Notes under the pieces: model-generated
Database searches by the model: none
What the model was told of the DNA's origin: nothing
What the model saw: the letters and a program-made list of their open reading frames with translations, nothing else
Part shown: positions 23,411 to 60,213 of the stretch, in pieces
Layout of the letters: each line of letters starts with the position of its first letter
Numbering within the stretch: the stretch's first letter is position 1
DNA from: Magallana gigas
Taxonomy: Eukaryota
Assembly (NCBI RefSeq): GCF_963853765.1
Contig: NC_088861.1
Location: 40,548,001 to 40,612,000 of the forward strand
Length of the DNA: 64,000 bases
Reading direction: 5' to 3'
Program-made: the position numbers and the translations under genes

Positions 23411-25879
23411 TAGTTTAATTCAACCTGTTTTCTACATCGGTAATTCTCTTGTGAGAAGGAATGGTTTACGACCCTACAAAACAACCTATGAATTTATTCT
23501 TACTACTTAAATAACATAATATAACGTCATTACCTTGAACGCATGAACAAAAGCTGCTATTCCAGTCAGTGGACAGAAACATATGGATAGAATCGACAAG
23601 GCAATCAAATTGGAGAATCGCTCAGTCTGAACAACGATCGCTGAAACAGGACGAGCCGGTGCTGTCTAAGAATGCAAAAGTATAAAATATATCACTATCG
23701 GAAGCCATAACTTTCAAAATTGAGAGTTTCATGGACATCAATATTATTATGCATATAGTTTTCCTCGATTTATGTAGGAGCATAAAAGATATTTTGTGAG
23801 ATTTCATACATTTTCTTTTCTGTGAATTTCAAGATTTTAGTAGATGGCAATATGGGCATCAAAATGATGCATTTAGTTGTTGGCTTTTTTTTTCTTCAAA
23901 TAAACGGGAGTATAGAAAACTTTCTTAGATTAAATACATTTCACAATGGTTATGGTGGCCCCTCCATAAAGCCTAAACATCTAACATGTACCAAGGGGCC
24001 ATGAATATCACATGTATATCTAGGCGTCCCTGTTCATTATAACAACTTAACAGTTTCTACCCACATTTTATGGCCAATGAGTTATGGCGGTCATGAATTT
24101 TATTATCTATCTTTTCCATCCTCTGTATAACTCTTTACAACAAATTGGGTCAAGATAGCCCTATAGTACATGTAGTTATAGAGAAGCTCAAATGTTAACG
24201 CACGACGAAACCAGATCGCAATGTCACTCTAGTGAATCAGTTGGACTTAAAACATTTATCAACTTCCTCCTTTACATTAAAGGAATAAAGTTAAGTTTTT
24301 GATTTTTCATTGTAACGTGAATATATTTCCTTCGATTGCTGTAGTATAATTGCGTTTAAGAAACGAGTTGCCTTTACAACGTAATTTAAATCGTTTGGAG
24401 AGGTAACAAAATTGGCACGAGAACATGAAAAATCGATTTTATGATAAGGAAAACTCCTGTCATGTCTTTCAATATGATCTACATAATGTATCCATTAATT
24501 TACTTGGCCAATATTACATGTTCTACAATAGGATTAAGAGGTTAGAACTGACCATTTAATGGCTTAGGCATATAATATTTGCGTAAGTAAGGAGTGTAAA
24601 GGTAAAAAGCTAGTATGATGTTATTTTCGTACAATATATTTGCTTTAAAAACCCACGTCATGTAATGGATATTTATTCCTCATTTATTATAACTACATAT
24701 ATCAATTACTCGTGAATTATCAATATCCAACCAACGTGAACCGCGTTTAAGTGGATCTGCTGAAGCAATACTGAAATTCTACACCTTCTTTAATATGCAT
24801 AGACGAAAGTAACAAAACGCCATAAGCATAAGGAAACAGATATCGACCCAATTACTTATAAACATGTCCTTGAAAAAAACCTGAAAACAACTTAATTAAT
24901 GGCTTAAATCTAAAGTAAATTTTTAAATGCAAATTTAAAGGAAATATTTAAAGAAAGAATTACTTATTTTACCACAATATGTTCATCTGGTTTTGCAATA
25001 GTGTCATCTAGCTTTTGATACTTGAAGCCGGGACATTGACCGTAATTCCTTGTAGACTGTTCATATTCAGGACACTCATTGTCGCTCGCCGGTGGGGGAT
25101 TGTTTCCCTGATTCTCAGTGCCTTCTTGAAAAAAATGGTTGTTCGGACATTGGTCTTCTGAATGAATGTTATTCTGCCTTTCATTTCTCAAACTGGCCTG
25201 ATCGCCAAATTTGTCGGATTCTAGTTCTAAAAACATATATGTTACAGTTCGAAAAGCACCAACTAATACTAAAACATAAGGATTTACAAATTGAATACAC
25301 TATTCGCTATTTTGCTTAAATACTTATCTTAAGCGTTGTGCCCCTATTAATTATTGATTCTTATACTAATAAAAGAAAAAAAGGTTATTTAATTCTCAAG
25401 CAAAATAGAAAAAATCTAACAAAAAATCAAAACTAAAACGAAAGCAGCTTACTTTCGTACGCCTCCTTAGAAGCCATTGTCATCTGTCTGGATAAAATTG
25501 CATGATGTTAAATAAATACAATACTTACGGGTAGACCACGTGTTTGAAATATTTTCCTGTTTATAAAATTTAAGTAAATATTTTCGTGGCAATACAGTTA
25601 TGAGAACATGGAGTTTCAATTCGTTGCCATTCCGAAAAAAAAATAGTGCAAGAATCATTTTTTTAAAACATGAATTACCTTATGTTGGTTGAAACACAAA
25701 CATCAGGTATACATGGGAAATATGTTATCACTAATTGTGAAGATTTCGACTTTTATATTTTCATGTATTATGACAGTGTTTTATTTGGATATGGAGTTTC
25801 ACTTAAATTGAAAGTTTAAACTATGATTATCAACCAGAATTTAAAGCATTCTGCATGCTGTAAAACGAACAGTTAAAAT

Positions 25880-26818
25880 CACAGGGGCCAAGCCCGTTTT
25901 AACATTAATTTCAATGTCACCATAAATAAAGAAAGGGGTCGAACTCTGACCCAAAAAAAAACTACCAGCTCGCTTCAAAAGCCTAATAAGTCAATTAATT
26001 TTTAAAACACTCGCAATATGCATGTATTTTTCAAAAAAGTAATGTCTGAGATACACTCATGCCGAATTTCAAGTTGATGGGTCTTAAAATAGCGGAGATA
26101 TACGTCATTATTCTCTCGAAGTCGCCAGTTTATTTTTACTAGGACATTTACCGGTCCAGGGCTCACGATGGGATTTTGCCTCTGACAACAGCAGTATTGC
26201 AACAAGTCGAGAAACATTCGCACTAATCTTTGAAAATCTTACATCAAATGCACGCTACTTACATACAAAAACTCCGATAAAATTCCTTAAATACTCTCCA
26301 TAATGAACTTTTATTCTGCAGCCACATCAACTTCTGACCAGACCGGCCATTGTGATAGCTAATGATTAACTCAATTTCATTGGTTAATATTCCTGATGGT
26401 CCAATCAGAATCAGTCTTTCTCGAAGACGTTAAAATGGCCGGTCTGGTCAGAAGTTGATGTAAGATTTTCAAAGATTAGTGCGAATGTTTCTCGACTTGT
26501 TGCAATACTGCTGTTGTCAGAGGCAAAATCCCATCGTGAGCCCTGGACCGGTAAATGTCCTAGTAAAAATAAACTGGCGACTTCGAGAGAATAATGACGT
26601 ATATCTCCGCTATTTTAAGACCCATCAACTTGAAATTCGGCATGAGTGTATCTCAGACATTACTTTTTTGAAAAATGCATGCATATTGCGAGTGTTTTAA
26701 AAATTAATTGATTGGCTTTTGAAGCGAGCTGGTAGTTTTTTTTTTGGGTCAGAGTTCGACCCCTTTCTTTATTTATGGTTACATTGAAATTAATGTTAAA
26801 ACGGGCTTGTCCCCTGTG
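25880..26818. mobile_element. Foldback element with 8-bp TSD (hAT- or P-like)
   Basis: Nearly the whole element is an inverted repeat (arms ~385 bp, ~82-bp spacer), termini CACAGGGG/CCCCTGTG. Exact TSD GTTAAAAT at 25872-25879 and 26819-26826. Confidence 0.9.
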
Positions 26819-27535
26819 GTTAAAATATACACATTGACAACAGGAAATAAATTTGAAAAATGCAAAATTGAAACTCCAAAAATACAAACCAGTAATTAAA
26901 AAAAAGCCCCCCCCCCCCCCCTGCAAATTATATTGCGTTGGAAAAAAGTGTGATTTCAATTTAGTCATGGGAAATATTCAGAATGCAAGATTTTTAACAT
27001 GGTTTGCAAAGACAGGGAGGTCTTTACCCTCGGTCGATTTCGAATAATCTTTAGATCAGTATTATTATTTGATTACAAATCATCCCATAACATTTTTTTT
27101 GCATAAGCGAATTCAAAACTTCCTCTGCCCATTTATCACGGATTACTGTCCAATTATCGCTTACAATGACAAGGAATTCCAAAATACGCGATCGGATTTG
27201 ATCTGTGATATCTAGGAAAATGAAGGATGTCCGATTTTTAATCAGTCTACTCTACAGACCGAGTCATCAATTTTTTATTTAAAAGGTACAGTTTTTGGTC
27301 ATTTTGTGAATCAACTAGTGTATCCTGATGAAAATTGCGGCATTTGAATAAATTCGATACAAACATTCTGAACTCCATTTCGAAGAGTTTTTTTAATTAT
27401 CATAAGCGGATAATAAATAATATACATTTAAATACAAAAAAGTGAATGAATTGCAAAAAAGAGGCTGGAGGAATGTGGCATTTGGCTGTATGAACTTTTG
27501 TATTGTATTGTTGATTTGTTAACAGTTCATAGATA

Positions 27536-39426: not shown

Positions 39427-41251
39427 TGTCACCCGGGATTTTCTTTGCTTATCTGGTGACAACTGAAATAATGACCAAGGCTTCTTTAATAAAGTTTACG
39501 TCGTTTATTCTTGAGTGTCCAGCAAAAAGTCATAAGTTATTATAAGACATATAAAAATATAAGTAGTAAAACAATGAGTCTTTGCACTGAAAACAATATG
39601 CAACAAAATCTTAAAGTTAAAAATTTACTGACCACATCAATTAGAACCTATGATTCACATGTGCACATAATATCAAATGACAATAGATGTTTCAATACAC
39701 TAAACAATCACTACAAAAATGGGGGAAATTAACTTAAATGGAGAACTCGCTTGACCATGATGAGGTACACTATTTATGAAGACCAAAGCTAGGGTGTTTT
39801 GACAAACATTTGTTAAGTACCAATCAACATGAACAAATAAGCAATCTAGATCCTTAATAATGAGAATAATTATCTGTTGGAGCCTTGGAATGGGACTAAG
39901 GGAATAGAAAACCTATCTATGCACATAACACCTAGAAGTATACGAGTTTCAGTAGTCAAAGACATAAGTGCACATGTACCTGACTATAAAAACAAACAAA
40001 ACTAGAACGATTGCTACAAAAATGCTAAAACATAGTATTAAAAGACATATCAACACTTACACATTGTTCTGGGAACAATTGGTCAATGCAAATAATTGAA
40101 AAACACATATTTCGAGGAAAATATCCTGTCAGCGTACAACTCTCAATTTGTGCGGAAACATAAACAAGTTATATAAACTCTAAACCGGTCACGTGACAAT
40201 ATCCGGAATGTGAAATAGCAATTTTAAAAATGTTGAGTAATTTAGCTTTCTGAATCTCAAAAAGACACAAGAGTTGTAATTGAATAATAATCAATATCCT
40301 ATCCTTGAATTATCATTTTAAATGATTAGTTAGTTAATTTAAGACTTATCACGCCATGCGCGTTTTTCCGGAAATAAAATTAACAAAGAAAATAAATCAA
40401 GATTTTAACTTACTAATTTTGAAATTAACAGAATGAAATAGATTTACCGAATCAAAAGTAATTTTGTTAATGATAGTTAAAATGAATCGTTGAATGCATT
40501 TTAACAAAGACCTTATTAACATTTTGTGACAAATTAAGCAACCTGAATAAACAATGTACATTCATGCTTTCTATGAAAATATTGTACAAAGTGCATGGAA
40601 CAAAATAAACAGAAATAAATCAAAATATAAAATTGTAAGTTGCATATTTATAAATGGTATACATAAAAATAAAAATATAGTTTCCTACCTGAAATAATGA
40701 CCAAGGCTTCTTTAATAAAGTTTACGTCGTTTATTCTTGAGTGTCCAGCAAAAAGTGACGCGCTGGGCACTGGATACAAAAATCAGCCTGGTCGAGGTAG
40801 GGTTCAACAAGGGGTAATTATCAAAACAACAAAAACATATACAGATACATATACCCAAATTACCTATCGGGGGCCTCTCACAGAAAAGATACCTAAAAGA
40901 GCAGGTCTAACAAAGAAACTTAATCCGATGACCTGACACTAATTGAGTCAAGAGGACATCAAAAGAATTTGTTAATCGCATTGCGTGGCTTCGCGTAAAG
41001 GCTATTTGTTGATAAATAAAATGGAATTTAACGTGCAATCAAAATGTGTGAATATGTACCTAACTTCTTAACTTTTTGGCTTTAAGCTAAAATACGTGTT
41101 TATCATTATTCTGCGATAAAGAAAGGATTAACTTAGGAATTTTCTTGACGATGTTAGATTGAAATTGCTAATTTTAAGATAGAATAAATAATTTATTTTT
41201 ATATCAAATTTATTATAAAATATAGAAGAGGGTCGATTAGACCTGATGATA
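39427..41251 (-). repeat. 3' LTR (1825 bp)
   Basis: About 15 differences from 50913-52738 by manual comparison (~99% identity). Preceded on the minus strand by PPT AGGAGGGA (41254-41261) plus TT. Confidence 0.95.
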
Positions 41252-41662
41252 AATCCCTCCTGGTTCGAAAAATAGGGATGTAAAAAAAAAATAATGAGAG
41301 GTGGGTAATGTAATCACATATAAAAAAAATAAATTCTAAGCTAAAGGACTATAACATTGAAAAATAAATTGCATTTAATGTATATGTACAGAGGTAGGTA
41401 TGAAATGACAAAGTATGAATACATGGGGGGGGGGGGGTGAAACAAAAAAAAAGAAAAACATAGGCTTTGTACTCACTTAGGAAGTGGACGACCAAGTGAC
41501 ATGATACAGAACATGGGAGTACAAAAATATATATTGTGGACAAAATACATGACATTAGTTAATATAAACCAAGCATATTTGGTACAATAACATGGTATTC
41601 TTGCACACTCCTTTCACACAAAGTAAGCTCTGCAATTCCAGATCTAATGCAGTGAATAAAAT

Positions 41663-44126
41663 TTACTGTAGTAAACGAAAATATTGGTGGTGGGATAATA
41701 AAAAGTAAACTGTATATGGTTGAGCTAACAAATTTCGCAGTCTGTGAGCCTTATGTGGTGAAATGAGAATGGTGGTGGGAATGTTGATGCGTTTGTTTGT
41801 ATGGGTATTTTCAATAATGAAGTTGGGTGCATCTAATGAGAGGTTTGCCCAAATAAGGTATGTTCTGCGTATGTTGATGTGTTGGATGTCTTGTGGAGGT
41901 TGAATGTTCCAGTTGTCTGGACAGAGTGGGAGTGTTAGTAGTGGGATTAGGATGCAATCAGTTCCAGAAGTGAGTTCCATGTGAAGTGTAGTTTTGTGTG
42001 TTTGTTTGAATTTGTTCCATAGCCTGTGTGCATAGAAACAGATAAGTAAAGTAGTGAAAGCTGAAAGTGTAACATATGGCCATGGTGTCGTGAATGAAGT
42101 GTAGATGTTTTGAAGGATAGGTGATGGTGAGTCAGTGTTTGGACCATTATTGTAATAGGATATGAGGTTAGGATGTGGGGTAGGGAAGGCTGAAGTTGGG
42201 TTAGGAATGTGGGTTACAGCAAGAATAGTTGTTAATTTTTTAATTTTGAAGAAAGACCAAATACAGTATAGCATGCAACGTGTTGTTAACGCAGAAGCTA
42301 CCATAGCAATTGTACCACTAGTATCAGGAAAAGAATCAACAGTGAAGTCAATTTGACCTGCTAACATGGATTCAGCCAAAGATTGAAATACAGTTTCATC
42401 TTTCTTAGCTAGTTTTGCCATTTTATTTAAACTTAAATGATGTTTCTGATCTGCAGCCAAATACTGAGAAAATGAATGATTAAAAATTTTGAATTTAGGA
42501 ATTTTTAGATCAAGATATTGTTGGAATGTTGTATCGCCAAAGATTGTTGAATGAAATTTTGGATCAAAGAATTCTTGGATAAGAGCAGGGTTGACAGGGT
42601 GTAGCACAGTTATGGAATTAGAGATGTTTTGACATTGACCAATTCTAGGGGGTAGATATAAATCTCCTGAAGTAACTGAACACAAACATGGTAAATGCAT
42701 TACACAAAATTGGCAACCTTTAATTATTCTTTGACCTGTTGAGCAATCGAGGGCGAGCATTGAAGTTTGATAAAAAAGGATACTAGAGGGAGATAATTCA
42801 ATAATTGATGGTTTTATCTTGTTTGGAAAAAATCTGAAATCACATAATTTGTATATAAAAGATTTTTTGTTGTAAAATAATGATGACATGCAGGTTGATG
42901 AGGCAGAGGAAGTAAGTGCGAAGTGAAAAGGGCAAAATTTGATTGATGAACCTTTGCAGTTTGCAATTTGATTTGAAGTAACATGTGTGAAGTGTTGGTT
43001 ATCATGTGTGTGCAAAGTAAGTTGGGACATCTGCAAGTTGTGTGGCATGTGAAGTTGATGAATTGATGGGTACAGGAAATGAGTAGACTCTGTACAACAG
43101 AAGTGGTTGCTTATATGGAGAGATTGGGATTTTTAAAGTCAAAAATAATGTAGAATGGGTCCTAGCGTACAAAAAATCACCAAATGAAAAATAATACAGG
43201 GGGTCTTTATGAATAATATTAAATTTGGGATATTTTTGGTCGATTATGTTTTGAATTTGATTTAAAGATGATTTAATAACATGCGGGGTAAGCAAAAAGG
43301 GAGATAACTTGCCTTTTATCAATTCATGAATGCTAATTTTGATGTGTTCTTATGCAAGGTTTAAAGTAGCTGTAGCATTTGTTTGTTTCAAAATTAACTG
43401 TTCTAAAAGAGCAAACTCATTTTCCACAGAATCTACAGAACGATGAAGTAGGTCAGTGAGGGCAACTGTGTCATCATGATTTTTTTTAATTGCACCCATA
43501 ACATTGTTAAATCGAGCATCAACAGTAGAAATGAAAGAAGATAAATGTTTTTCTTGAACAGCCATAGCGTTAGCAATTTTAACATTGTTACGATTAAGGA
43601 GTTGCATATGACGCTGTAAAGTATCAATATCGTCTGAAGTAGCAGTGCCAAAAAGAGATTTGGAGATTTGGCCGACAAAGTCAAATATTGCACGCTTAGA
43701 TCTGGAAGAGCCAATGAATTGATTTCGATGGGGGATTTGGGATTGGGGTATAAGGGTGTGGATTTCACGGACAGTGGAATTGACACTTGCCATTGTTTGG
43801 GTTCTTAAAGTATTAAGTGTTTTAATAATATGTTTGCTGTACTTGCACTGTGGGGCGTTGTTACAGTACAGTTCTCGGTTTAAGTAAACCGCTTTCGGTA
43901 GTGGGATCTGGAATGTGTGGGCCCAATATTCCTGTCCCAGGTAAAGTTGATGGGTTGGTTCAAAGAGGACTCCATAATTCAGTCGTTGGACTGCAGCAGC
44001 ATCACCGGTGGACACAAAACAAAGGAGAGACAAAAGACTCATGATGAGGAAGACGTTGGATAGTCCAGGAGTACCTTTGGGAAGGAAGCAAGATTCAGGA
44101 TTATGTTCTGTACACTTTGTTAGCAC
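41663..44126 (-). pseudogene. env: env-like class I fusion glycoprotein (baculovirus-F/errantivirus type)
   Basis: Signal peptide (LIMSLLSLLCFVSTGDAAA), furin site RSKR then fusion-peptide-like AIFDFVGQISKSLFGTAT, heptad region, Cys-rich ectodomain, two hydrophobic segments. In-frame TAA at 43350-43352 and a 2-bp loss in a (CA)n run near 43005. Confidence 0.88.
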
Positions 44127-44265
44127 TTATAGGTAACATGTTTATGGCATGAGATACATATAAAAATACTAACAATGGTCCATAACGAGTGGCTCAGGGA
44201 GCAGAGATAGAAATAGGATTATAGGAAATGTTAGGTAAAGAGTCTTGGACTAGTCGATGTCAAAT

Positions 44266-47200
44266 CTACTTGTTGAAGCAAGTCAGCCTTTTGTTCTTCT
44301 TTCGGGAAGTCCCTTTTTGTGTCTTGGTGATGTGAAACTTGCGTACCATAGAAGGAGGAAGAGTTTCCTCAGGTTCCCATGTTCGTTCCGCGTGTCCGAG
44401 CCATTTTACTCGGAACAGTTTCTTGCCTTTGTGAAATTTGTATCGGAGGAGTTTCTCCACAAAGAAGGTTTCACTCGAGTCATTGGGTTGGATGGGGTTG
44501 GGTGTGTCTGCAGTTGGCATTGTGGGGGTAGGGGTTGATTTGGCATTTAAAGTTAGATCCTCATCGAGTGCTGGATTTGGTTGAGACAAAGTTGGCTCTG
44601 ACCGTGCATCTAAAGTTAGATTTTCATCCAATGTATTTGGTTGAGACAAAGTTGGCTCAATCATGGTTGGGGTTGTCCGGGATCTGCATCTTCAGGGGGC
44701 AGATGGTTATCAATGATGGGTTCAGTGGGGGGTGGGGGGTCGAGACTTGGTGGGTCATCTGGGTTTTCATACCTTTTAAGCCTGTTGCATGAATGAAGGA
44801 TTTTAGCTCTTTGTGGTTGGAGCATCTTCGCAATTTGTATGTGTTGTTAGGCCCAATAGCTGTTATGTAGAATGGGCCATCCCAAGGATTGTGAAGTTTG
44901 GGAGATAGACCTACTGGTACTTTTGTAGAATGGAGAAGTACGGACTGTCCAACACGAAAGTCTGGCACATCTGTAGATTTCTTGTCATACTGTTGCTTTT
45001 GCTTGATTTGTGCTTGTTTTATGTTCTCTTTCGCTATATCCTTAACGATTTTCAAGTGGGACATAAGATCAGTCACATGAGATTTTGCATCTTTATTGAG
45101 ACCATTTCTTGGAATGAGTGAGGTATCGAAGGGAAGATTCATTTCCTTTCCAAAGACAAGATGGTAAGGGGAAAAGTTTGAAGCTTGTGTACATGGGCTC
45201 ATCCTTATGGCCATCATGACTCCTGGTAATAGCTTACACCAATTGGTTTGTGTTGAGTTGACATAAGTTCTCAGACATTGGGCGATTGTGCTATTCATTC
45301 TCTCACAAGTTGAATTGGTTTGAGGATGATAGGAGCTAGTAAAGTGTCTCGTTACTTGGAAAATTTCACAAACAGCTGTGACAAGTTTACTAAGAAAGTT
45401 TTGTCCTCTATCGCTGACAATAACTTTTGGGGCACCATATCTAGCAAAGATTTCAGAAAACAGAACATTAGCAATTTCTTTTGAGTCTTGTGTTTTTAAG
45501 GGAAAGGCCTCAGGAAATTTGCTAAATGAGTCGACAATTAACAATATGTACTTGTACCCTTCATTTGAAGTTGTAAGTGGACCAAGAATGTCCATGTGAA
45601 GGCGAACGAAAGTGTCCTCTACAGGCATATTGACTAAAGGGGCTCTATGAGGATTTGTGCTTTTCTTAGAATGTTGACAAGAATCGCAAGTACGAATGTA
45701 ATCTGCTACATTTTGGGCCAGAAATACTTCAACTGGATTGCTCTTTAAGTTCTATCCAAACCAAGATGGGCTCCTCCCGCAATGCTGTCATGGTATGAAC
45801 GAAGGACGTCATCCCGTAGACATCGTGGGACAGCTAGTTGTTTCAGGACGGGTTGTACTTGAGAAACTTTCTTAGAACGGGGCTCATAGAAATGAAAGAG
45901 AGAGCCATCTAACAAGACAAAGTGATTACTTTCTGAAATTAATTTATCTCTTTCCAGTTTTGTAGAAGGTACTGTGCCATTCGACAAATATGCGTACATT
46001 GCTGCAAAGTCTGGGCATTCACTTTGTAACTGTCCGACATCATCAACAGTAGATATGGGACATACATGAGGTGTGTCTGACATCAGAACTTGTTGCTTTT
46101 CATTTTTGTAGAAGAATGTGACTTGATTATGTTCTTGAGAAGTGCAGAGATAGAAGTGCTCGGGATTACATCCTCTGGGTCAGGTGCATTTGCTGGTTGG
46201 TCAGGGTAAGTGCGTCTTGAAAGTGCATTAGCAACCTCATTTTCTTTCCCTTTTTATGAACGACTTGAAAGTTGTAACTTTGAAGGAGAATGGACCAACG
46301 AGCTAAGCGACCTGTGTCATGTTTGACAGATTGTAGCCACTTAAGAGCAGAGTGATCAGTGAAGACTATAAAGGGTTTGTCAGCAAGATACACATGATAA
46401 GTTTTGATACCCTCAATAATAGCTAAACATTCTCGCTCTGATATAGTGTAATTTCGTTCAAATTTGTTAAGGGAGCGACCGCCGAAAGCTATGACCCTTT
46501 CAACACCATTGTCATCAAACTGTCCGAGAATGAAACCTAGTGCTGTACCTGAAGCATCAGTAGTAAGAACAAAAGGTTTTGAATTGTCAGGATAAGCTAA
46601 GACAGGTGGGGATGTTAGAGCTGTTTTTAATTGGTCAAAAGCAGCTTGACATTCTTCAGACCATTTGAACTTAACATCTTTCCGCAGCAGAGCAGTAAGG
46701 GGGCTAATGAGAGAGCTATAACCCTGGATAAACTTCCGATAATAATTGCAAACGCGGGGGTGTTAAGGAAGCATATGGGCAATTTGCCGTCTTATTTTGA
46801 CTGTTGTATTCAAAATCGTGAAATTAAATAATTGTTTTGAATAAGATCAAAAACTTAGTATTATCCTTTAAAATAGATGTCAGTGCAATAAATTCGGGTA
46901 GTACATCACTGCCACATTGGTGCATTATCACGTGACAACTATAAATAGCTTACGTATATTCCTTAACATAAAATGAGATAGAACAACACTACCGCGCGGT
47001 TTCTAAAATAAAATAAACATACCAAGCGAAGGCAAAACATCTCCGTTTAATCAAAACCGCTGCTAGAATCCTATGTATTTCCTTATTAAAAAGTTATTCA
47101 TCAGGTTCTCGTAAAACCTTCCCAACATTTATAAAGTTTGCACGGAAAACGGCAAATTGCATTAAAACAACACACAACATGGGATTCTAGCAGCACTTTT

Positions 47201-49498
47201 TAATTTAAGCATTGATCAAACTAACGATACGTATAAAATTTCAAGTTCAATAAACACGGGGTAGTGTTGTTCTAGTCGGATTTTTATATCGTAAACAACG
47301 ACAGAGGAAAGCCTGGCCGAGAAATAAAAGCAAATTTACATACCTTTTAGCGAATGATTGATGAAACTAACATCTACCCCAGTATTCTTATGTTCAATTC
47401 TCAATAAATCACACCACAATACTTATTAGAGTTCTTAGATTAGTTATATTTTGAATTTGTTTACAATGCTTTCCGATCAAATTCACACGGCATTCAACTT
47501 TTAGTCATGACGTCATCAATGTGTAAATCTACGTAATACAAACTAATTTCTGGCGAAAATTGTCTTCAGTAATTTTTATTTGTTTTTGGTCTACGTTTCG
47601 TTGCTTATATATTTGAATATGTACATAATAACTAAGATTTGTGATTTCACGGAATTACATGTAACTCAGATTCCATATGCTTCCTTAACACCCCCGCGAA
47701 GACCAAGGAATGACCGAACATCTTTGGTAGACTTAGGGGTTGGGAAAGTTTTCACTGCATCTGTTTTTGCAACATCAGCTTTCACTCCAGTTTTTGTAAT
47801 AACATGACCCAAATAGTGGACTTCCTTTAGGGCAAAGGAACATTTACTTGGTTTCAAAGTAAGTCCTGCAGATTCGAGGCGAGTAAAAATGTCATGAAGA
47901 TGTTGTATGTGTTGTTGAAAGGAATTTGAGAAGACTAATATGTCGTCAACATACACAAGACAAGTTTTCCAATTAAGACCTTTAAGGACTTGGGTCATGA
48001 GAGCTTGGAAACTAGCTGGGGCATTAACAAGACCAAAAGGCATTCTTTTCCACTGATATATTCCTGTGGGGGTCACAAAGGCTGACTTATGAGCAGTTTC
48101 AGGGTCCATAGGAATCTGCCAGAAGCCTGATGCAAGATCTAAAGTAGAGAAAATATTGGCTTTAGAAATGCCGATAGTATCAAAGACATCTTCAAGTCTG
48201 GGGAGAGGAAAGGTGTGTTGTTTTGTTACAGCATTGAGTTTCCTGTAGTCAACAGCAAAACGAAGTTGTCCGTTCTTTTTCTTGACCATAACTACAGGGC
48301 TCTGCCACATGGAAGTTGATTCCTCTATAATGTCTGCATCTAACATTTCCTCCAGTTGTCGGTTTGTTTCTGCATTTACCTGTGGGGATTGGCGGTAAAA
48401 ACGCTGACGGATTGGATGAGCATCACCTGTTTCAATTCTGTGTGGCTGAAGAGAACACTTACCCAATTCTTTGAGATCTGATGCAAAGACTGACCTATGA
48501 TTTTGGAGAAAAGCATGGAGAATTTGTTTTTGATCACCTGTTAAGTCCGAAGAGGATAGGTCAAAGGAGATAGGTTCCTTAATGTCCTGCTTTTCTGAAA
48601 GGGGTTTGGCACTAGTGGGGGTGTCAAGAGATGCTACCATGTTTGAATTGATACAACAAGCTGATGCAACACATGTATCTGCTGAAAGAGTAACAGGGTC
48701 ATCGGTTGGGTTGATGATCTGAATAAAATGAGTGTCATTGTTGATTGTGTCTATCAAGCATTTAGCACCAACAAGTCCAAGTTCTGGTAAGTCTGGTGAT
48801 GGTTCAAGGAGAACTGATTGGTCATTGGGGAGGTTTGAAATGAACACCTCTACAGATGTGATTGACTTTGGATTGATTTTGATAGAATGGGACACACGGG
48901 CAATACCTGTGTTAATTTGAAGGGAAAGGACTTGCTCTGAAATGGGGTCTTTGAGAGAAAGAGTGTTTTGATTAACATCTAAGACAGCTTTGTTGAGTGT
49001 TAGAAAATCTAGTCCTAGAATGATGGGATGTTGAAATTTTTCAAAAAATTGGAAAGTGTGAGAAATAATACAATTTTCAAAAGAGACAGGTAGGGACAAA
49101 GCACCAAGACTGTGGTGTTTCTCACCACCAACAGCGACAGCATCAGTTGCATCCATCGACTGTAGCTCGTTCCTATCTATACCTAATCTAGCCAAGACAG
49201 ACGCAGCTACACAAGAGATACTTGCACCCGTGTCGACCAATGCTCTTATGGGATGTCCTTAGATTTCAATGCTAACAGTATTTTTCATAATAGGCATGAT
49301 CAAATTGACATTGCTGAATGATTTCTTACGTTTTGATTTGGTTTTGGGTTTCGGGGTAGGTTTTTGGTTAGATCTTGGAGGATGGTTAGGTTTGGAATCA
49401 TTAGAATTGATATACGAAGCATGCTTAGTATGAGCTGTTAGCAGGGATGAGTCATTGTTAGCTTGGTGCCTATCCTCAAGAAGGATAGGCGCGTGCCC
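44266..49498 (-). pseudogene. pol: pol: protease, RT, RNase H, integrase, C-terminal chromodomain
   Basis: LVDTGAS; DYRKLN, DLASGFWQI, MPFGL.NAP, YVDD; TDAS..ERECLAI..TDH; HDS..GAHLG..CDSC, DILGP..SDRGQNF..ERMN, GPF; FFVEKLL..FRVKWLGHAERTWEPEETL. Stops at 49259-49261 and 45745-45747, frameshifts, and a 946-bp insertion. Confidence 0.97.
46753..47698. mobile_element. Non-autonomous DNA transposon with 26-bp perfect TIR and 2-bp (AA) TSD inserted in pol
   Basis: CGCGGGGGTGTTAAGGAAGCATATGG at both ends, inverted. Removing it and one AA restores SFLGL-CNYYRKF. Confidence 0.92.
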
Positions 49499-50545
49499 CT
49501 AGTATGATGAGTTTTGGAAGGTGGGCTGGTTAGAGTGGTTGTTAGATTGCTGCTGATTAGTTGTCACATGTTGAGATGTATGTGGTGGTGTTGGATTTGT
49601 GCGACAGACTGAGGCAAAATGACGCCAATTTCCGCAGTTGGAACATTTAACATTAAATGCAGGGCAAGATGATCTGGAAAAACAGAACTTACCACATCCG
49701 CTGCATGTCTTTCTCCCTCTCCTATTCGTGGGTTGGTTCATCGGTTGAAACCATTGCTGCTGGGGCCAAGGTGAAGGTGGTACCATCCATTGGAAGGGTT
49801 GACCGGGTTGGTTGAAGGACTGACCGGGTTGGTTGAACTGGGCGGGGTGGCTGAAGGACTGGTTTGGTTGGCTGAAGGACTGGTTTGGTTGGTGAAGGAC
49901 TGGCCGGGTTGGTTCCAAGGTGCCTGGGCCTGGGGTGTTTGGGAGAAGGATTCACGTCCAGGGTTGTGTTGCTTCCTCTTTTGATTTTGGAATGGTCTCT
50001 CTTGTGTGGCTGTTAGAGCACTAATTTCACTCTTAAGTGTCTCCCTTATTTGAGATGTGAGAGATTGAATGTCAAAGTCCTGTTTGTTGTCACATTCTAG
50101 TTCTTGTTTTGCCAGGTCAACAGCGTGACCTAATTCCTGGAAAGTTTTGGGCTCTTTCGAGATGACACATATTTTATAGTGTGGATTAATCGAATTGGAC
50201 TTTGTATATTTCTGGGAGGTCATGTCCCAAAGACGTTTTTTCTGCTCTTGAGAGGTAGTCATTGGTTGACTCTCCAGGGTACTGTCTAAGTCCTAGAAGG
50301 GAATTTGTTTCCTTATTTGCAAAGCGACTTTTCAAGCAGTCTTTGAATGTTGTAAGGTTGTTTTTCTGGGCTGGTGATAAGGTTTGGAGCCATGTGGCTG
50401 CTTGGCCTTCAAAATTACACCCTATGGCAAGGAGGGCTTCTGAATCGGAAACATTGTGGAATTTCTGCCAGTTTTCGAGTACAGTTATCCAAAGATGTAC
50501 ATTTTCACTGCCATCAAATTTCTTCAAATTAATTCCTGTGGCCAT
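49499..50545 (-). pseudogene. gag: gag (capsid-like region, Q/P-rich linker, CCHC knuckle), frameshifted
   Basis: KKFDGSENVHLW...FEGQAATW; C-terminal CSNCGNWRHFASVC. Spread over three ORF-track frames. Confidence 0.88.
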
Positions 50546-50899
50546 AATTCTATTTCTAATCTGTTGTTCTTCTAGTGGTTGATGATCTGTTGACGATTGT
50601 GTTATGTGATCCTCAGGGATTTGTTCCTCATCTAAAGTTTCAATTTCTTGATCCTCTGATTCAGATGCTGGTGTTGACTGGAAGTGTTGATCCTCTGATT
50701 CAGATGCTGGTGCTTCGGTTGTTGATTGGGGATGTTGTTCCTCTGAATCAGATGGTGCTATTTCTAGTGTTGATTGGTAATGTTGTTCGTTTGACTCGGA
50801 GGTTTGACTTGTGGTGGTAATGTTTCGTCTTGATGCTGGTTCTCTGTTGATCGCAGGTAGTAGTTGATTGGCTTTGTATTCATGTGGGATCTTGAGCCT

Positions 50900-50909
50900 T
50901 TCTCCACCA
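50900..50909 (-). promoter_or_regulatory. Primer-binding site, probably tRNA-Ala
   Basis: TGGTGGAGAA lies 3 nt after the TGACA end of the 5' LTR. It is complementary to the ...TTCTCCACCA 3' end of eukaryotic tRNA-Ala(AGC). Confidence 0.75.
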
Positions 50910-50912
50910 ACT

Positions 50913-52738
50913 TGTCACCCGGGATTTTCTTTGCTTATCTGGTGACAACTGAAATAATGACCAAGGCTTCTTTAATAAAGTTTACGTCGTTTATTCTTGA
51001 GTGTCCAGCAAAAAGTAATAAGTTATTATAAGACATATAAAAACATAAGTAGTAAAACAATGAGTCTTTGCACTGAAAACAATATGCAACAAAATCTTAA
51101 AGTTAAGATATTTACTGACCACATCAATTAGAACCTATGATTCACATGTGCACATAATATCAAATGACAATAGATGTTTCAATACACTAAACAATCACTA
51201 CAAAAATGGGGGAAATTAACTTAAATGGAGAACTCGCTTGACCATGATGAGGTACACTATTTATGAAGAACAAAGCTAGGGTGTTTTGACAAACATTTGT
51301 TAAGTACCAATCAACATGAACAAATAAGCAGTCTAGATCCTTAATAATGAGAATAATTATCTGTTGGAGCCTTGGAATGGGACTAAGGGAATAGAAAACC
51401 TATCTATGCACATAACACCTAGAAGTATACAAGTTTCAGTAGTCAAAGACATAAGTGCACATGTACCTGACTATAAAAACAAACAAAACTAGAACGATTG
51501 CTACAAATATGCTAAAACATAGTATTAAAAGACATATCAACACTTACACATTGTTCTTGGAACAATTGGTCAATGCAAATAATTGAAAAACACATATTTC
51601 GAGGAAAATATCCTGTCAGCGTACAACTCTCAATTTGTGCGGAAACATAAACAAGTTATATAAACTCTAAACCGGTCACGTGACAATATCCGGAATGTGA
51701 AATAGCAATTTTACAAATGTTGAGTAATTTAGCTTTCTGAATCTCAAAAAGACACAAGAGTTGTAATTGAATAATAATCAATATCCTATCCTTGAATTAT
51801 CATTTAAAATGATTAGTTAGTTAATTTAAGACTTATCACGCCATGCGCGTTTTTCCGGAAATAAAATTAACAAAGAAAATAAATTAAGATTTTAACTTAC
51901 TAATTTTGAAATTAACAGAATGAAATAGATTTACCGAATCAAAAGTAATTTTGTTATTGATAGTTAAAATGAATCGTTGAATGCATTTTAACAAAGACCT
52001 TATTAACATTTTGTGACAAATTAAGCAACCTGAATAAACAATGTACATTCATGCTTTCTATGAAAATATTGTACAAAGTGCATGGAACAAAATAAACACA
52101 AATAAATCAAAATATAAAATTGTAAGTTGCATATTTATAAATGGTATACATAAAAATAAAAATATAGTTTCCTACCTGAAATAATGACCAAGGCTTCTTT
52201 AATAAAGTTTACGTCGTTTATTCTTGAGTGTCCAGCAAAAAGTGACGCGCTGGGCACTGGATACAAAAATCAGCCTGGTCGAGGTAGGGTTCAACAAGGG
52301 GTAATTATCAAAACAACAAAAACATATACAGATACATATACCCAAATTACCTATCGGGGGCCTCTCACAGAAAAGATACCTAAAAGAGCAGGTCTAACAA
52401 AGAAACTTAATCCGATGACCTGACACTAATTGAGTCAAGAGGACATCAAAAGAATTTGTTAATCGCATTGCGTGGCTTCGCGTAAAGGCTATTTGTTGAT
52501 AAATAAAATGGAATTTAACGTGCAATCAAAATGTGTGAATATGTACCTAACTTCTTAACTTTTTGGCTTTAAGCTAAAATACGTGTTAATCATTATTCTG
52601 CGATAAAGAAAGGATTAACTTAGGAATTTTCTTGACGATGTTAGATTGAAATTGCTAATTTTAAGATAGAATAAATAATTTATTTTTATATCAAATTTAT
52701 TATAAAATATAGAAGAGGGTCGATTAGACCTGATGATA
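50913..52738 (-). repeat. 5' LTR (1826 bp)
   Basis: Direct repeat of 39427-41251, adjacent to the PBS. Confidence 0.95.
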
Positions 52739-52850
52739 ATATGAAATATAAAAACCGAGGCGTTAGTCGAGGCTTTTATATTTCAAACAACAGACCGAGG
52801 AGGTTATCCTGCAACATACACAATAACAAGAACTTTATTTCTATTCTACT
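52739..52850. repeat. Palindromic non-autonomous element split by the Gypsy insertion (left arm at 39387-39426)
   Basis: The reverse complement of GGTTATCCTGCAACATACACAATAACAAGAACTTTATTTCT matches AGAAATAAAGT...TGTTGCAGAATAA left of the provirus. Central hairpin around CCGAGGCGTTAGTCGAGG. Confidence 0.6.
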
Positions 52851-54695: not shown

Positions 54696-56941
54696 TCTGG
54701 AGGATTTACCATATTCTGCAAACATATTAATTGGTTATATTTGCATTATCTTTAACTGTGAAAACAATTAAGTATACACAATTAATTAAAAACAAAAGCT
54801 TATTACATATGTTTTGATTGTGATTTTTATTTTAATATTTAATATGTCTAAAAGACATTTGCATAAAATTTTAGACCAAATTAAATATCAGTTGCTCAAA
54901 AGGGTTTTTGAGAAATACAAAATACATGTTTAAAAAACTTTTTGTTCCAACAGACGTGAAAATATAGTAGTAGACATGATGTTTCAATATTTATGAATCT
55001 TATATATTATTATTTTTAATAATAGTTGGATAAAAATTCCACATTGTTTTTCTTATCAATTAATATTCATGTACTTAGAAGGTTCCTCAATATATATCCT
55101 CTACATGAAAGCATGATATATTTTTTAACACCAATAGACACTTAATTGACATATATTTGTACTAAATTTTTGTACATAACCTCCACGACAGTTTGTCGTA
55201 AATGCTAGTAAGTACATATGTATACAAAAACACTTGGTCAATGGACATAAAATATATTAATCTTTTTCAATAAGATTTGGAAAAAATGCCACTTGCTTTT
55301 TTCTCTCGTCAATTTCTATGTACATAACAGGTTCTCTGAGATCATCTACAAGCACAACATTTGTTAAACCAATAGACACTTGACAAACATTTGCACAGGA
55401 TTTCCGTACATTAAGTATTCTAGTAACAGCAACGTATTTGTATCAATTTTCAGTTGAACACTGTAAAAAATATCTTATCTGACAAATCCCACTCTTGTTT
55501 TTACATGTGTAGGAGTTTCTTGTATAACATGTTCCTCGGGCAAAAAGGCCTTTATGGGGCCAACCACAAAAGTGTTAAGTCCAATACATGTCCTAGTAAA
55601 TGACTGCAAAGATGACTGCATTTTTTGATAAAAAGACTTTACAGAACCTATTTCTAATTTGTCAACAAGTTCAGGAATTTTATTTTGAATACATACAGCA
55701 GTCACAATTTGGAGATCAATTTTTTGTGTGCCATGGAAAAGATTTCTTAGATCACCATTCAATCCTTCATAAAAAAAAACAAGACTGGGACCACAGTGGT
55801 CCCAAATCTTCAACTTTTGTACACAAATGTAAAAGACAATGAACATTAAATGTGGCGTAACGCTCTGTATAAAGTTCTTCTATACCAATACAAAATCTTT
55901 TGAAACAACATCTAGCTAAATTCAGATCAGTCTGTGAAATTGAAGTCTTCAAAAGTAAGAAAGTGCCAAGCACTAAATTACAAAAATGATCAAAATATTT
56001 TGAAGGGAGTACATCTTCCAAAAGGGGTACATAGTAATAAAGAAGAAATGTTCTAAATTCAGATGCTTTCCAGTCACCATATTCATCAATTTTTTTTGGT
56101 AGGCGTGAAATCATACAATGTGGTCTTAGTTTGTTGATTCTATCATTAAGTACATCAATATGGCTTCTAAGAGACCATTGCTCATTTTTGTGATCTAAAT
56201 CAATCCAAAGCCCAAGGATCATCTTAACAACACCAAGCAAAACACAGTGCATATAATCTATGCCAGTACCTTTGATTAAATCAAACTTTGGAAAAGACAT
56301 CAAAAAGGATATTCCTTTAACTCCCATTTCCGGCACGGGATCTCGTCTTCTTCCACTCAGATATTCTGTTTCTACTCGGTGCGCTGTAGCTTTGGTTTCC
56401 TCCTTTGTCCTTAACTTGTCATGGCTTTCATTACTCTCAGACTTGTAGGGGTAAATATGAGAGTTCCCTGTTGCCGATATTGCAAATGTTTCTCCGGGGG
56501 ATAGACAACAAGGACACCCATATTTACCATTAAACTGTACAAAATCCATCATTAAACATCTCGCTGGTGCATCAGCTGTGCTGCTAAGAAGAACGGCTTT
56601 CACTGTTAACTGTTCTTCTTTAATACTCATGGGAATGCCTGAAAATATTTAAAGATATTCATATTTACTGGCATATGAAATATTGATCAACATATTTTTG
56701 ACATATAATTGCATTGTATATTTTGGGGGGATTTTAAAAGTTTTGTTTTAATATGTTTTGTTGAAAAAAAGATTACTAAAAATGAATAAATCATTCATGT
56801 CTTTGTTTGCTTCTTTACATAATGATTTAAATTGTTTGAACAAAATATTTCTCTTTTTTCCTATGTTCAAGAGACATTCATAATTCTATTGAAAATCATT
56901 GGATTGGGACCAAGTTAAAATTTGACCTGAATGCATTATCA

Positions 56942-56945
<4 letters not shown>

Positions 56946-56971
<26 letters not shown>
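56946..56971. repeat. (TA)13 microsatellite
   Basis: Direct reading. Confidence 0.95.
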
Positions 56972-56978
<7 letters not shown>

Positions 56979-57504
56979 AGTGCAAACTGAATATATCTTA
57001 ACATGGTAACAGTTTACACTTTCTGCATCACTGCAATTTCATGGTAGGGGGATAAAATATGACATACACACCTGTAAAAAGCAAATTGAATTCTTTCAAA
57101 AAAGATCCAAAAAGTAGTTTCATATTTGGTTTCTGAGTTCCAAACCATAGTCCTAAGAAGATGCGGTTTTCTCTTGTGAATCTATCAATAAATTTTGATA
57201 AAATAGTGTTAAGTTGTTAACAGAAGAGTTATTTACAGAAAAATGAATTAATAGGAACCAATGGTTCTACTTTGCCATCTCCGTAATTTGTAATATCCAC
57301 ATAACAAATTTATAAGTTTAAAGTGCTGAGGGCTTAAAAAAATTGTTATATCCGAGATATAGCGTTATCTGTGTTAAACAAGGTTATAAGACATGTTCTT
57401 CGAGCATCTTTTTTGTTTCTCCTTGTAATGAAGAGTTCCAATAAAAATTTTACATTTATAATCATTTTTAAAATCATTAGAATTAACTTGTATATATATG
57501 TATG

Positions 57505-57595
57505 CCTAGATGGCCAAGTGGTTAGAGCCGTGGCCGCTCACTGCCAGGAGCGTAGATTCTAGAAGTCGTGAGTTCAAAGCCCCGGCCGATATTGA
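57505..57595 (+). mobile_element. tRNA-derived SINE head or tRNA-like remnant in a transposase intron
   Basis: A box TGGCCAAGTGG and B-box-like GAGTTCAAAGCC. No complete cloverleaf. Confidence 0.55.
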
Positions 57596-58491
57596 ATTCC
57601 AAAATAGTGAATTTTGCTGTGCTGTATATTTATTTGTTTTTATATCAGCAATTCAAGTGTATTTTCAAGAAGAGTATATAGGAAAATACAAACTCTAGTA
57701 TTTTGAAGAAATGCCTGGTAAGGTATCCTAATTTTTTGCAAGAAAGCTTGTCAAAGTAGTAGTAAACAATTAACAAATTCCTGGAAAAAGTTATATAAAG
57801 TTGAAGAACGTGTCGTCTGACCTTAATGTTTATCATTGAATGTTAAGAGCATCATAATTTCAGAATTCATTATAACTGGTACAAATGTACCTTGCATCAG
57901 GTGGCAGTTCATTGATTACTGCATAAACAGGCCAAACACCAAATATAGATGACTTGAACACAGCAACTCCATCGGTATTAATTTGAAAAGACAGGTGCAA
58001 TTGATGTTTCCTCTCTTCCAGGGTTGTTCCATGGAAAAACCCACTGATGTCAAAATGACTTTGGTATACATTTCCATTGTAGACATCTTCAATAGTGGAT
58101 GTGTTCCCTAGTTCACTCCTTTCAATTTTGCTTTTTCTTATCATGTCAAGAACACCAGGTCCTAAAAAATACATCATAAAATGTAAAATGAAATCATCAA
58201 TATATATTTGTTTGATATATACATTAAAGAGAATTTTACATTATGTTACTTTTTTTGCCAGGGAGGAAATTTTTGTGGAACGACAATCTATCATATGTAG
58301 TATTAAATATGGCATACATATTTACCAATACTTTTTAAATTATCAAATTTTACAGTATTAAAGTGTGGGTTTATTTCACATGCATGTCAGTGCAGGGCCC
58401 TTATGATATTAACACATGGCCAAAATTTTTAAAATAGCATTGATAATTACTGCAATAAAATTAACAATTAAATGTTAGTTACATCTTAATA

Positions 58492-58697
58492 CTGAGGTTT
58501 CATTAATATTCAAGGGTATCAATTTTCGTGGATAAAGTAAAAATCACAGTTTAAAGGATACGTAAATTCGTTGCCAATGACCCTTTCAATACAAAATGTT
58601 AATAAAATTGCATATCAATGAACATTTAATTTCATGGATCAATTCGACAACGAAATCCACGAAAATTGGTATTCAACCAATATTGATGAATCCACAG
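58492..58697. mobile_element. Tc1/mariner-type MITE (TA TSD), intronic
   Basis: TA|CTGAGGTTTCATT...GATGAATCCACAG|TA with TTTTCGTGG motifs. Confidence 0.75.
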
Positions 58698-60213
58698 TAC
58701 TTGCAAGCAAGAATGATAGAATAATCCAAATGAAAATGCTCACTTTTCAAAATTGTTTCCATCTGATCCTTAAGGGGTATGGTGATGAAGTATCTTATGC
58801 TCGTAGATGAACAGTTAGGACATGTTTCTCACTTTGCGTCCTTTTCAATGCTGAGAAAGCACTTATCACAAAAGTGATTGTATATAAAAAGCGTTTTCAA
58901 TTTCCTGAAAAAGTCTTGATACATAGTAAGGGTTGCCCTGCATATATTATCTGAAGGACAATGCACTTCAAGAAGATTTAATAAATCACAAAGGGCAACT
59001 CCTGATAGGTTGTGTCTTGTAGCGAATGTTACAATTAGCAGCATACTCATGCTTACAGTAAGCCTGCTTCCTTGATATAGCGGTTGATTTTCAATATCAC
59101 TCTGATTATCGCTACTTTTTTGGTCTAACTTCTGTTTTTCTTCCTCCAGCATTTCCTCCACCAATATATCATATTCATTTGGAACTTCATCAATGCAATC
59201 AGTTAAATCATCAATTGTTTCTGGACCTAAAGTAATTAGTAATAAGAGATAAGGTAGATATAATAAAATACAAAAAGTTGATGCTAATTATTAAATGTTA
59301 AATAAAATAATTTGTCACCAAATTTATAACAGAGTTTTCATACTATCGGTATATCTTTTTCTTTGGTAAAGTTACAGATCTTTAGAAATATCATTGGAAA
59401 AAGGATGTAATAATTTATTACCTGACATATGTTACATTAACTGCTTATGAATATTGTTAGGTTGTGGTATAAATTCAATATCAACCAGATTATAAGACTA
59501 TAACTGCATTTGGGCGTTTTAGGATTACTAAACCGTGGAAATATAACGGACATGTCGCAAACTGAGGAAATTTGGACTAACTATTTTTTTTTCCCCAAAA
59601 AAATATTTTGGCATCACAAATTATGTTGAGAAGAATGAAAAATTTATTATTTTCTCATATTCTGATGACCGTAATTACGACAGTCATATTCATATCAATT
59701 CATATCATATGCGTGGATTTCTGCGCAGTGCAGAGGTGAATCTTGAATTGGGTCCGTCTTTCTTAATCAATTAAATGTATACGGATTCAGAACTGTTAAT
59801 CTACAAAAATCTATATACCTGTAATTTCATCAACATTTGACTCATGTTCTTCCTCTTTCTCTTGTTTTCTCCACTTCGATGTCCTCGATGTGCCATCATT
59901 TGGCCCGCGTTTTTTCGACGCCATCTTTTTTCTTGGTCATTTGTCAAATCGTCGATAAGCTATTTCGTTTCCTAGCTTATTCTTCCAAAGTTCCATTTCA
60001 CGGATATTTCACATTTCTGTTAATATTTCTTCACTGGAATTATTATAAACAAATTATAAAGTAGTCATTTTACTTTCGTTTAAATAGAAACATGTTAAAA
60101 TAGTGGAGGCGCGCACGAATCATCGTACGATCTACTTAAGAACATTTAGTTCCGGTACCAAAAGTTCCTAGTTGTGAGCGCGGCGATATATAGGTTTATG
60201 CACCTAGACAAAC

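Follow-up and report, generated by a model that had tools for sequence, protein, structure and literature searches.

An 8-nt spacer followed by a stem has precedent as a signal for stop-codon readthrough (PMC3159437, PMC13517186). For retro-transcribing agents, the available sections of a 2026 review of animal-virus readthrough (PMC13517186) name gammaretroviruses, epsilonretroviruses, and a few unclassified retroviruses, and leave retrotransposons unmentioned. Long terminal repeat (LTR) retrotransposons with an in-frame stop between gag and pol are described, in the accessible parts of the reports, from fungi: the fission-yeast chromoviruses Tj1 (PMC4600332), Tcry1, and Tosmo1-3 (bioRxiv 10.1101/2022.12.06.519325) and Candida Tca2 (PMC2194720). 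The Tj1 stop is given there as required for transposition (PMC4600332). Chary and Hayashi (eLife, PMC13524379, in part) describe gag-pol-env Ty3/Gypsy elements with an F-type env in bivalves including Crassostrea, and one errantivirus clade of cnidarians, molluscs, and annelids that carries a chromodomain. The stretch considered here, termed the window, is 64,000 nt of Magallana gigas DNA (NCBI RefSeq assembly GCF_963853765.1, contig NC_088861.1, positions 40,548,001 to 40,612,000 of the forward strand). It contains an env- and chromodomain-bearing Ty3/Gypsy LTR element of about 13.3 kb on the minus strand (39427-52739, in window numbering), and the candidate site is the gag/pol junction of this element. 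Comparison across families makes it highly probable that this junction is designed for programmed UAG readthrough, stimulated by a predicted stem 8 nt downstream. The signal is real, conserved, and very likely functional, with unusually strong comparative support.

In the window copy, gag ends in a TAG (49499-49501) located 34 codons beyond the end of its CCHC zinc knuckle. An 8-nt spacer (49491-49498) separates the stop from the 5' arm of the stem (49481-49490), which begins with GCC at position +9 and is joined by a 3-nt loop (49478-49480) to the 3' arm (49468-49477), all on the minus strand. The sequence-only reading had proposed a TAG, an 8-nt spacer, and a 9-bp hairpin (arms 49490-49482 and 49476-49468); its coordinates hold, and the stem grows to 10 bp with one U-G pair. 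The 39-nt hairpin stretch has a predicted folding energy of -17.6 kcal/mol (z -4.1, equaled by none of 200 shuffles), and longer contexts give z values of -1.8 to -2.6. As the same reading had described, and the open reading frames (ORFs) bear out, the common gag/pol frame stays open through a 79-codon linker (49262-49498) to a TAA (49259-49261), after which the protease and reverse transcriptase (RT) ORF continues in the same frame as the end of gag. Its view of the TAA as a later nonsense mutation is also borne out: all four other copies read (L002, L003, L005, and L007; three same-family sisters and one related-family copy) have a sense codon there, and the mutation is specific to the window copy. 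TAG and hairpin recur in 10 of 11 DNA matches across the genome, the eleventh (L005) having no junction. The stop and its next base can also form a weak 4-bp helix with 49486-49489 in the 5' arm, an alternative to the main stem that the conserved letters entail.

The layout extends well beyond the window family. Forty 10-kb loci were taken from 150 RT matches without regard to the motif, with one or two per apparent family and mostly from the upper half of the list. Fifteen have gag, TAG, and pol in one frame, and four have TAG and motif in decayed frames. The others comprise eight fused ORFs of other families, six loci without the junction region, three with AAG (lysine), two of frameshift type, and two with pol only. 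A set of 18 families was assembled from 16 rows, one per family (duplicates L056, L065, and L066 dropped), together with L131 and L151, which were added through protease and DNA similarity. The stop is TAG in all 18, at RT identities down to about 57%. In 16 of the 18 families an unbroken helix of 8 bp or more begins at +9, compared with 0-2 families at each offset from +3 to +8; after 1805 other TAGs in the same loci, such a helix stands at +9 in 10.4%.

Spacer and 5' arm share particular letters across these families. Position +1 is G and +6 is C in 17 of 18, +2 and +3 are purines in every family, and the 5' arm opens with GCC at +9 in all of them; G occurs at +5 in 4 of 18 and is not conserved there. 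The same base occupies third codon position +6 in 17 families, +9 in 18, and +12 in 17, while codons +2 and +3 encode six and five different residues. Near-fixed third positions beside varying codons indicate that spacer and arm are conserved at the RNA level.

A motif search of the genome returns 47 matches, and its reversed control none. Among the 30 matches with DNA, 28 have a zinc knuckle upstream in the frame of the stop, and the other two have a protease motif downstream. The same pattern relieved of TAG gives 53 matches, namely the same 47, five chance hits, and one decayed copy with another codon. A scan of 12 third ORFs from TAG families finds Baculo_F in 5, and coverage of the env query exceeds 750 aa in seven further loci. 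Chromo is found in 6 of 11 TAG-family pol ends scanned, once below the curated cut-off, and is absent from L061, L064, L067, L068, and L070. The gag-TAG-pol layout is a trait of the clade. RT trees, the first of which omitted L074 as too short, do not settle the base of this clade, so gains and losses of readthrough are not countable. Reassignment of the genetic code was considered and rejected, as TAG also ends pol in L042, L044, L045, and L049. Readthrough between pol and env was likewise rejected: env starts more than 100 nt past the pol stop and mostly in another frame. Three copies of one TAG-family element (G000:C1:69265684, 69275680, and 69285676) form a tandem array with a spacing of 9996 nt. 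In more distant Gypsy families (L075, L078, and L076), a C2H2 zinc-finger ORF follows pol in place of env.

The upper part of the stem covaries. Across 16 similarity-picked rows, 73 of the 80 cells of pairs 6-10 hold standard pairs, versus 62.9 in shuffles, with none of 20000 reaching the observed value. Extension to 26 rows, ten of them motif-picked, gives standard pairs in 96 of 112 cells at pairs 8-12, versus 74.2 in shuffles. Two ungapped alignments of nine rows each (A1 and A2) were also examined. A2 has two-sided changes in 7 of 13 pairs and in 18 cells, reached by 0 of 500 shuffles, and its pairing of 89% falls to 26-50% in slid registers. Conservation of the TAG across copies and covariation of the stem were the checks that the sequence-only reading had proposed; the former is found in all 18 similarity-picked families and the latter in the upper pairs.

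The hairpin also respects the reading frame. Six values of stem span occur (23, 29, 32, 35, 200, and 212 nt), and in every one of the 26 rows the difference is a whole number of codons. The zinc knuckle shares the frame of the stop in 27 of 28 rows, and the protease motif, found in 24 rows, does so in 22, at 41-102 codons after the stop. Whole-codon spans and the frame shared by knuckle and protease indicate that ribosomes pass through the hairpin in frame.

Natural variants separate the parts of the signal. The loop is 3 nt long in the window family and 3-186 nt across families. The long-loop version, seen in two of the families (L054/L140, L141, and L151), keeps TAG, spacer, and a stem of 13-14 bp across loops of 172 and 186 nt, with different paired letters. 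A sister lineage of these long-loop elements has AAG, a lysine codon, in place of the stop (L053/L147, L055/L145, L057/L142, L143, and L146 scored; L144/L158 are also AAG copies, outside the scored set). In the five distinct AAG copies scored, gag and pol share one frame, the 5' arm is degraded, and the 3' arm is lost, leaving no helix longer than 5 bp. The stem thus decays once the stop goes, and a Gag-linker-Pol fusion does occur naturally. Remnants of spacer and 5' arm, and the position of the TAG-bearing L157 as sister in the tree, suggest that AAG was derived from TAG. LTR identities of 99.9% in L053 and 99.6% in L055 indicate that the fused form moved recently.

The lineage of L053, L055, L057, L143, L144, and L146 combines lysine at the stop and fused gag-pol with remnants of env, which amount to 53-169 of 848 residues in four loci. 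L053 and L055 have a shorter gag N-terminus than L054, and the pair L054/L053 carries signs of recombination, with near-identical pol and 73% identity in gag. Such a lineage may take Gag from TAG-bearing relatives or balance Gag against Pol in some other way. Other Gypsy families (L051, L052, and L071; G000:C3:24638133-24648132, C4:57378376-57388375, and C1:70704063-70714062) have the structure LTR-pol-LTR. They contain a single pol ORF (1578 and 1682 aa) with a protease motif within the first 70 codons and no other ORF longer than 132 aa on either strand. L051 and L071 have LTRs that are 100% and 99.7% identical, and several copies of each have long open frames; these families are apparently gag-less yet recently inserted.

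The junction type occurs in other organisms. Among 13 motif matches on metagenome contigs, five are the same junction type. Three of these five include an RT; each shares 56-64% identity with its nearest family here and groups within the same well-supported clade. The other eight, which lack both a zinc knuckle and a protease motif, were discounted as chance matches. IMG/VR viral contigs gave no motif match and no RT match.

Several observations weigh against stem-stimulated readthrough or temper the comparison behind it. L049 has a bulged stem and a divergent spacer, and L077 is decayed and has lost the 3' arm. The covariation alignment was anchored on the last five letters of the 3' arm. A1 pairs at 97% but has a two-sided change in only 1 of 10 pairs, a level that 464 of 500 shuffles reach. 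Pairs 1-3 are invariant, changes in pairs 4-5 are confined to one side, and these pairs therefore carry little information on structure. The families share common ancestry, so that counts are not independent events and kinship inflates covariation tests. The stop-loss comparison is probably one evolutionary event. The proline at codon +4 is invariant in all 18 families, which makes a protein-level constraint possible. Two further observations could fit the synthesis of Pol without decoding of UAG, either by re-initiation or internal initiation at a linker AUG or by a bypass like that of Tca2, with the stem serving that route or packaging. In 13 of 16 families an in-frame Met follows the stop and precedes the protease motif, often by 16-20 codons, and the junction of Candida Tca2, with a stop, an 8-nt spacer, and a predicted structure, drove no readthrough in a yeast reporter, as described in the accessible part of PMC2194720. 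Yet no such Met occurs in L045, L054, or L070, nor in L105, L116, or L124. Synthesis of this kind also leaves unexplained the whole-codon hairpin spans, the stem start at exactly +9, and the decay of the stem once the stop is a sense codon, and synthesis of Pol by any of these means is very unlikely.

The remaining explanations are less probable still. If pol or gag-pol came from a spliced RNA, the site could be a 3' splice acceptor, whose consensus YAG/G a TAG followed by G fits, and +1 is G in 17 of the families. Against this, a pyrimidine tract is missing, the 21 nt upstream having a mean T of 0.27 and C+T of 0.51, and the site keeps to the gag frame and reads TAG in every case, with no CAG. 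Contigs from the RNA libraries of two studies (X12, 2201 nt; X2, 7527 nt) run unspliced across it, which is weak evidence, since such contigs may be DNA-derived and may miss rare forms. No joint in these contigs ends at the TAG, the X2 joint at 49517-49603 (depth 2.6) lies elsewhere, and no env splice joint is among the joints listed. Raw RNA reads from X21 and X24 (about 1% of each run) have a mean depth below 0.5 at the junction, with nearly all reads on a 948-bp insertion in pol, and are uninformative on expression, strand, and editing. A splice acceptor at this position is highly improbable, and A-to-I editing of UAG to a tryptophan codon in some transcripts is equally so. Such editing operates at the amber/W site of hepatitis delta, and in 11 of 18 families the A of the UAG is predicted to be paired with a probability above 0.5, which makes folding compatible with it; but the conserved stem leaves out the stop codon, and the pairing probability of the A ranges from 0.00 to 0.98 across families. 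The window copy is decayed and carries a nonsense TAA 80 codons later, which could make the TAG a chance nonsense mutation in a single ORF with an incidental hairpin. TAG and stem recur in 47 copies in the genome, across families whose RT identity falls to about 57%, and outside this organism as well, which contradicts this explanation and leaves it a negligible chance.

Programmed UAG readthrough would join what is directly observed, namely a conserved layout, covarying pairs, and a constraint to stay in frame, in a simple course of events. Most ribosomes would stop at the UAG and release Gag. By analogy with work on Moloney murine leukemia virus (MoMLV) and alphaviruses, in the sections available (PMC13517186, PMC3159437), the stem would lie near the mRNA entry channel of the ribosome and slow termination, and a near-cognate tRNA would sometimes decode the UAG, in a few percent of events. 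The resulting Gag-linker-Pol polyprotein would be cut by the element's own protease. Rare readthrough would thereby set a high Gag:Pol ratio, with much Gag and little Gag-Pol. A bolder proposal, held tentatively and at somewhat less than even odds, is that an old lineage of animal env-Gypsy elements, extending beyond oysters, independently evolved a gammaretrovirus-style UAG switch with a simple stem and a loop of up to 190 nt. The switch would be tied to the enveloped lifestyle, with all env-bearing lineages of the clade having it and env-less ones having fused gag-pol or no gag. If true, these elements would serve as an existing set of natural mutants for dissecting how termination is blocked by a 3' stem.

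The finding adds an animal Ty3/Gypsy radiation with a UAG-spacer-stem signal and covariation across 26 distinct junctions. Its spacing is that of murine leukemia virus (MuLV) without a pseudoknot, and its natural variants (short loop, 190-nt loop, bulged stem, and lost stop) allow spacer, stem, and loop to be tested directly for their roles. For annotation, a single stop between gag and pol in such elements is part of the design rather than decay, and pol may do without a start codon of its own.

The window element is bounded by a 5' LTR of about 1.83 kb (50913-52739) and a 3' LTR (39427-41252), which are 99.18% identical over 1827 columns, and all of its parts lie on the minus strand unless stated. 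Its gag (49502-50914; Retrotrans_gag, E 7e-6) is broken into three frames (50186-50914, 49738-50292, and 49502-49951), with indels near 49892, 50171, 50191, and 50806 relative to the RNA-library contigs. Pol is split by a 948-bp high-copy insertion with terminal inverted repeats (46751-47698, no strand assigned). Upstream of it lie protease and RT (47699-49258; Pfam gag-asp_proteas and RVT_1, with Ty3 RT as the best PDB match), and downstream lie RNase H, integrase, and a C-terminal chromodomain (44266-46750), in several frames in this copy. The baculovirus-F type env (41663-44126) is in three pieces, the first of which matches Baculo_F (E 5e-10). With gag in three frames, pol interrupted, and further frame breaks in pol and env, the window copy is dead and is itself no longer able to make the readthrough product.

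LTRs flank gag and pol, and the domain order of protease, RT, RNase H, and integrase is that of Ty3/Gypsy. The window RT matches Ty3 (E 9e-53) far better than MuLV-type RT (E 1e-11) and is not of the retroviral type that Retroviridae require. The element is therefore an env-bearing Ty3/Gypsy element rather than a retrovirus, in agreement with the sequence-only reading, which had called it an env-Gypsy, and the F-type env as third ORF places it among errantiviruses in the broad sense.

The 948-bp insertion is non-coding, ends in inverted repeats of about 24 bp, is apparently flanked by a 2-bp target duplication, and is abundant in RNA reads; it is likely a non-autonomous DNA transposon. Each 1.8-kb LTR contains an exact internal 68-nt direct repeat with copies about 1227 nt apart (50949-51016 and 52176-52243; also 39463-39530 and 40689-40756). 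Elsewhere in the window, a long inverted repeat (25877-26821) has 257-nt arms that are 100% complementary and separated by 207 nt, nested in a further 85-nt pair. ORF pieces on the minus strand at 55767-59287 resemble a decayed DNA-transposon transposase.

By domain content, the window copy with its C-terminal chromodomain can be likened to the chromodomain-bearing clade of Chary and Hayashi. The main text of that report, in its available part, contains none of the terms readthrough, read-through, frameshift, in-frame, or recoding, and the searched text of its seven supplements contains neither readthrough nor stop (PMC13524379). A study of mollusc LTR elements (PMC6238403) makes no mention of a stop codon or readthrough. 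Searches of full-text literature, judged mainly from their listings, turned up no account of the signal in animal env-Gypsy elements; outside their scope, Gao et al. 2003 (RNA 9:1422), Repbase, and subscription papers may mention single cases. The fungal elements, as far as the accessible descriptions go, share the in-frame stop, and Tj1 and Tosmo also share a chromodomain with the oyster elements. They differ in using TGA, which in the fission-yeast ones stands in a short GAA-TGA-CT context with no stem described there, in having no env described, and in their fungal hosts. Skipper may be a further case of readthrough; PMC5006619 makes no mention of a Skipper stop codon.

Other readthrough signals resemble the junction in form. 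The alphaviruses Venezuelan equine encephalitis virus (VEEV) and Sindbis virus (SINV) and Drosophila kelch combine a spacer of 8-12 nt with a stem of 10-14 bp and a loop that may reach 100-270 nt and be dispensable, according to the available sections of PMC3159437. This long-loop geometry matches L054 and L151, whereas the stop in those systems is UGA and the sites are not gag-pol junctions. MoMLV shares with the oyster elements an in-frame UAG between the zinc knuckle and the protease (DTG) motif, an 8-nt spacer opening with G, and a structure whose first pair, G-C, falls on the ninth base past the stop (PMC13517186, section 4.1.1). In MoMLV the stop lies inside the protease N-terminus, whereas in oyster families it precedes the protease motif by 41-102 codons. 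MoMLV also requires an H-type pseudoknot, whereas oyster loops of 3-186 nt are unconserved and a search for such a pseudoknot in 24 short-loop rows was negative (best loop-to-tail helices totaling 121 versus 117 in shuffles, with 63 of 300 as good). The elements may thus work in a MuLV-like manner without belonging to the MuLV structural class. Of the gammaretrovirus-like character claimed by the sequence-only reading, the UAG-G context, a spacer of 8 nt, and placement downstream of the zinc knuckle stand, and the structure does not. Given the Ty3-like RT, the likeness to the gammaretroviral signal is probably convergent. Gag-stop-pol in fungal retrotransposons and env-Gypsy elements in bivalves are already known; the novelty is a variant of an established recoding strategy in elements of another group.

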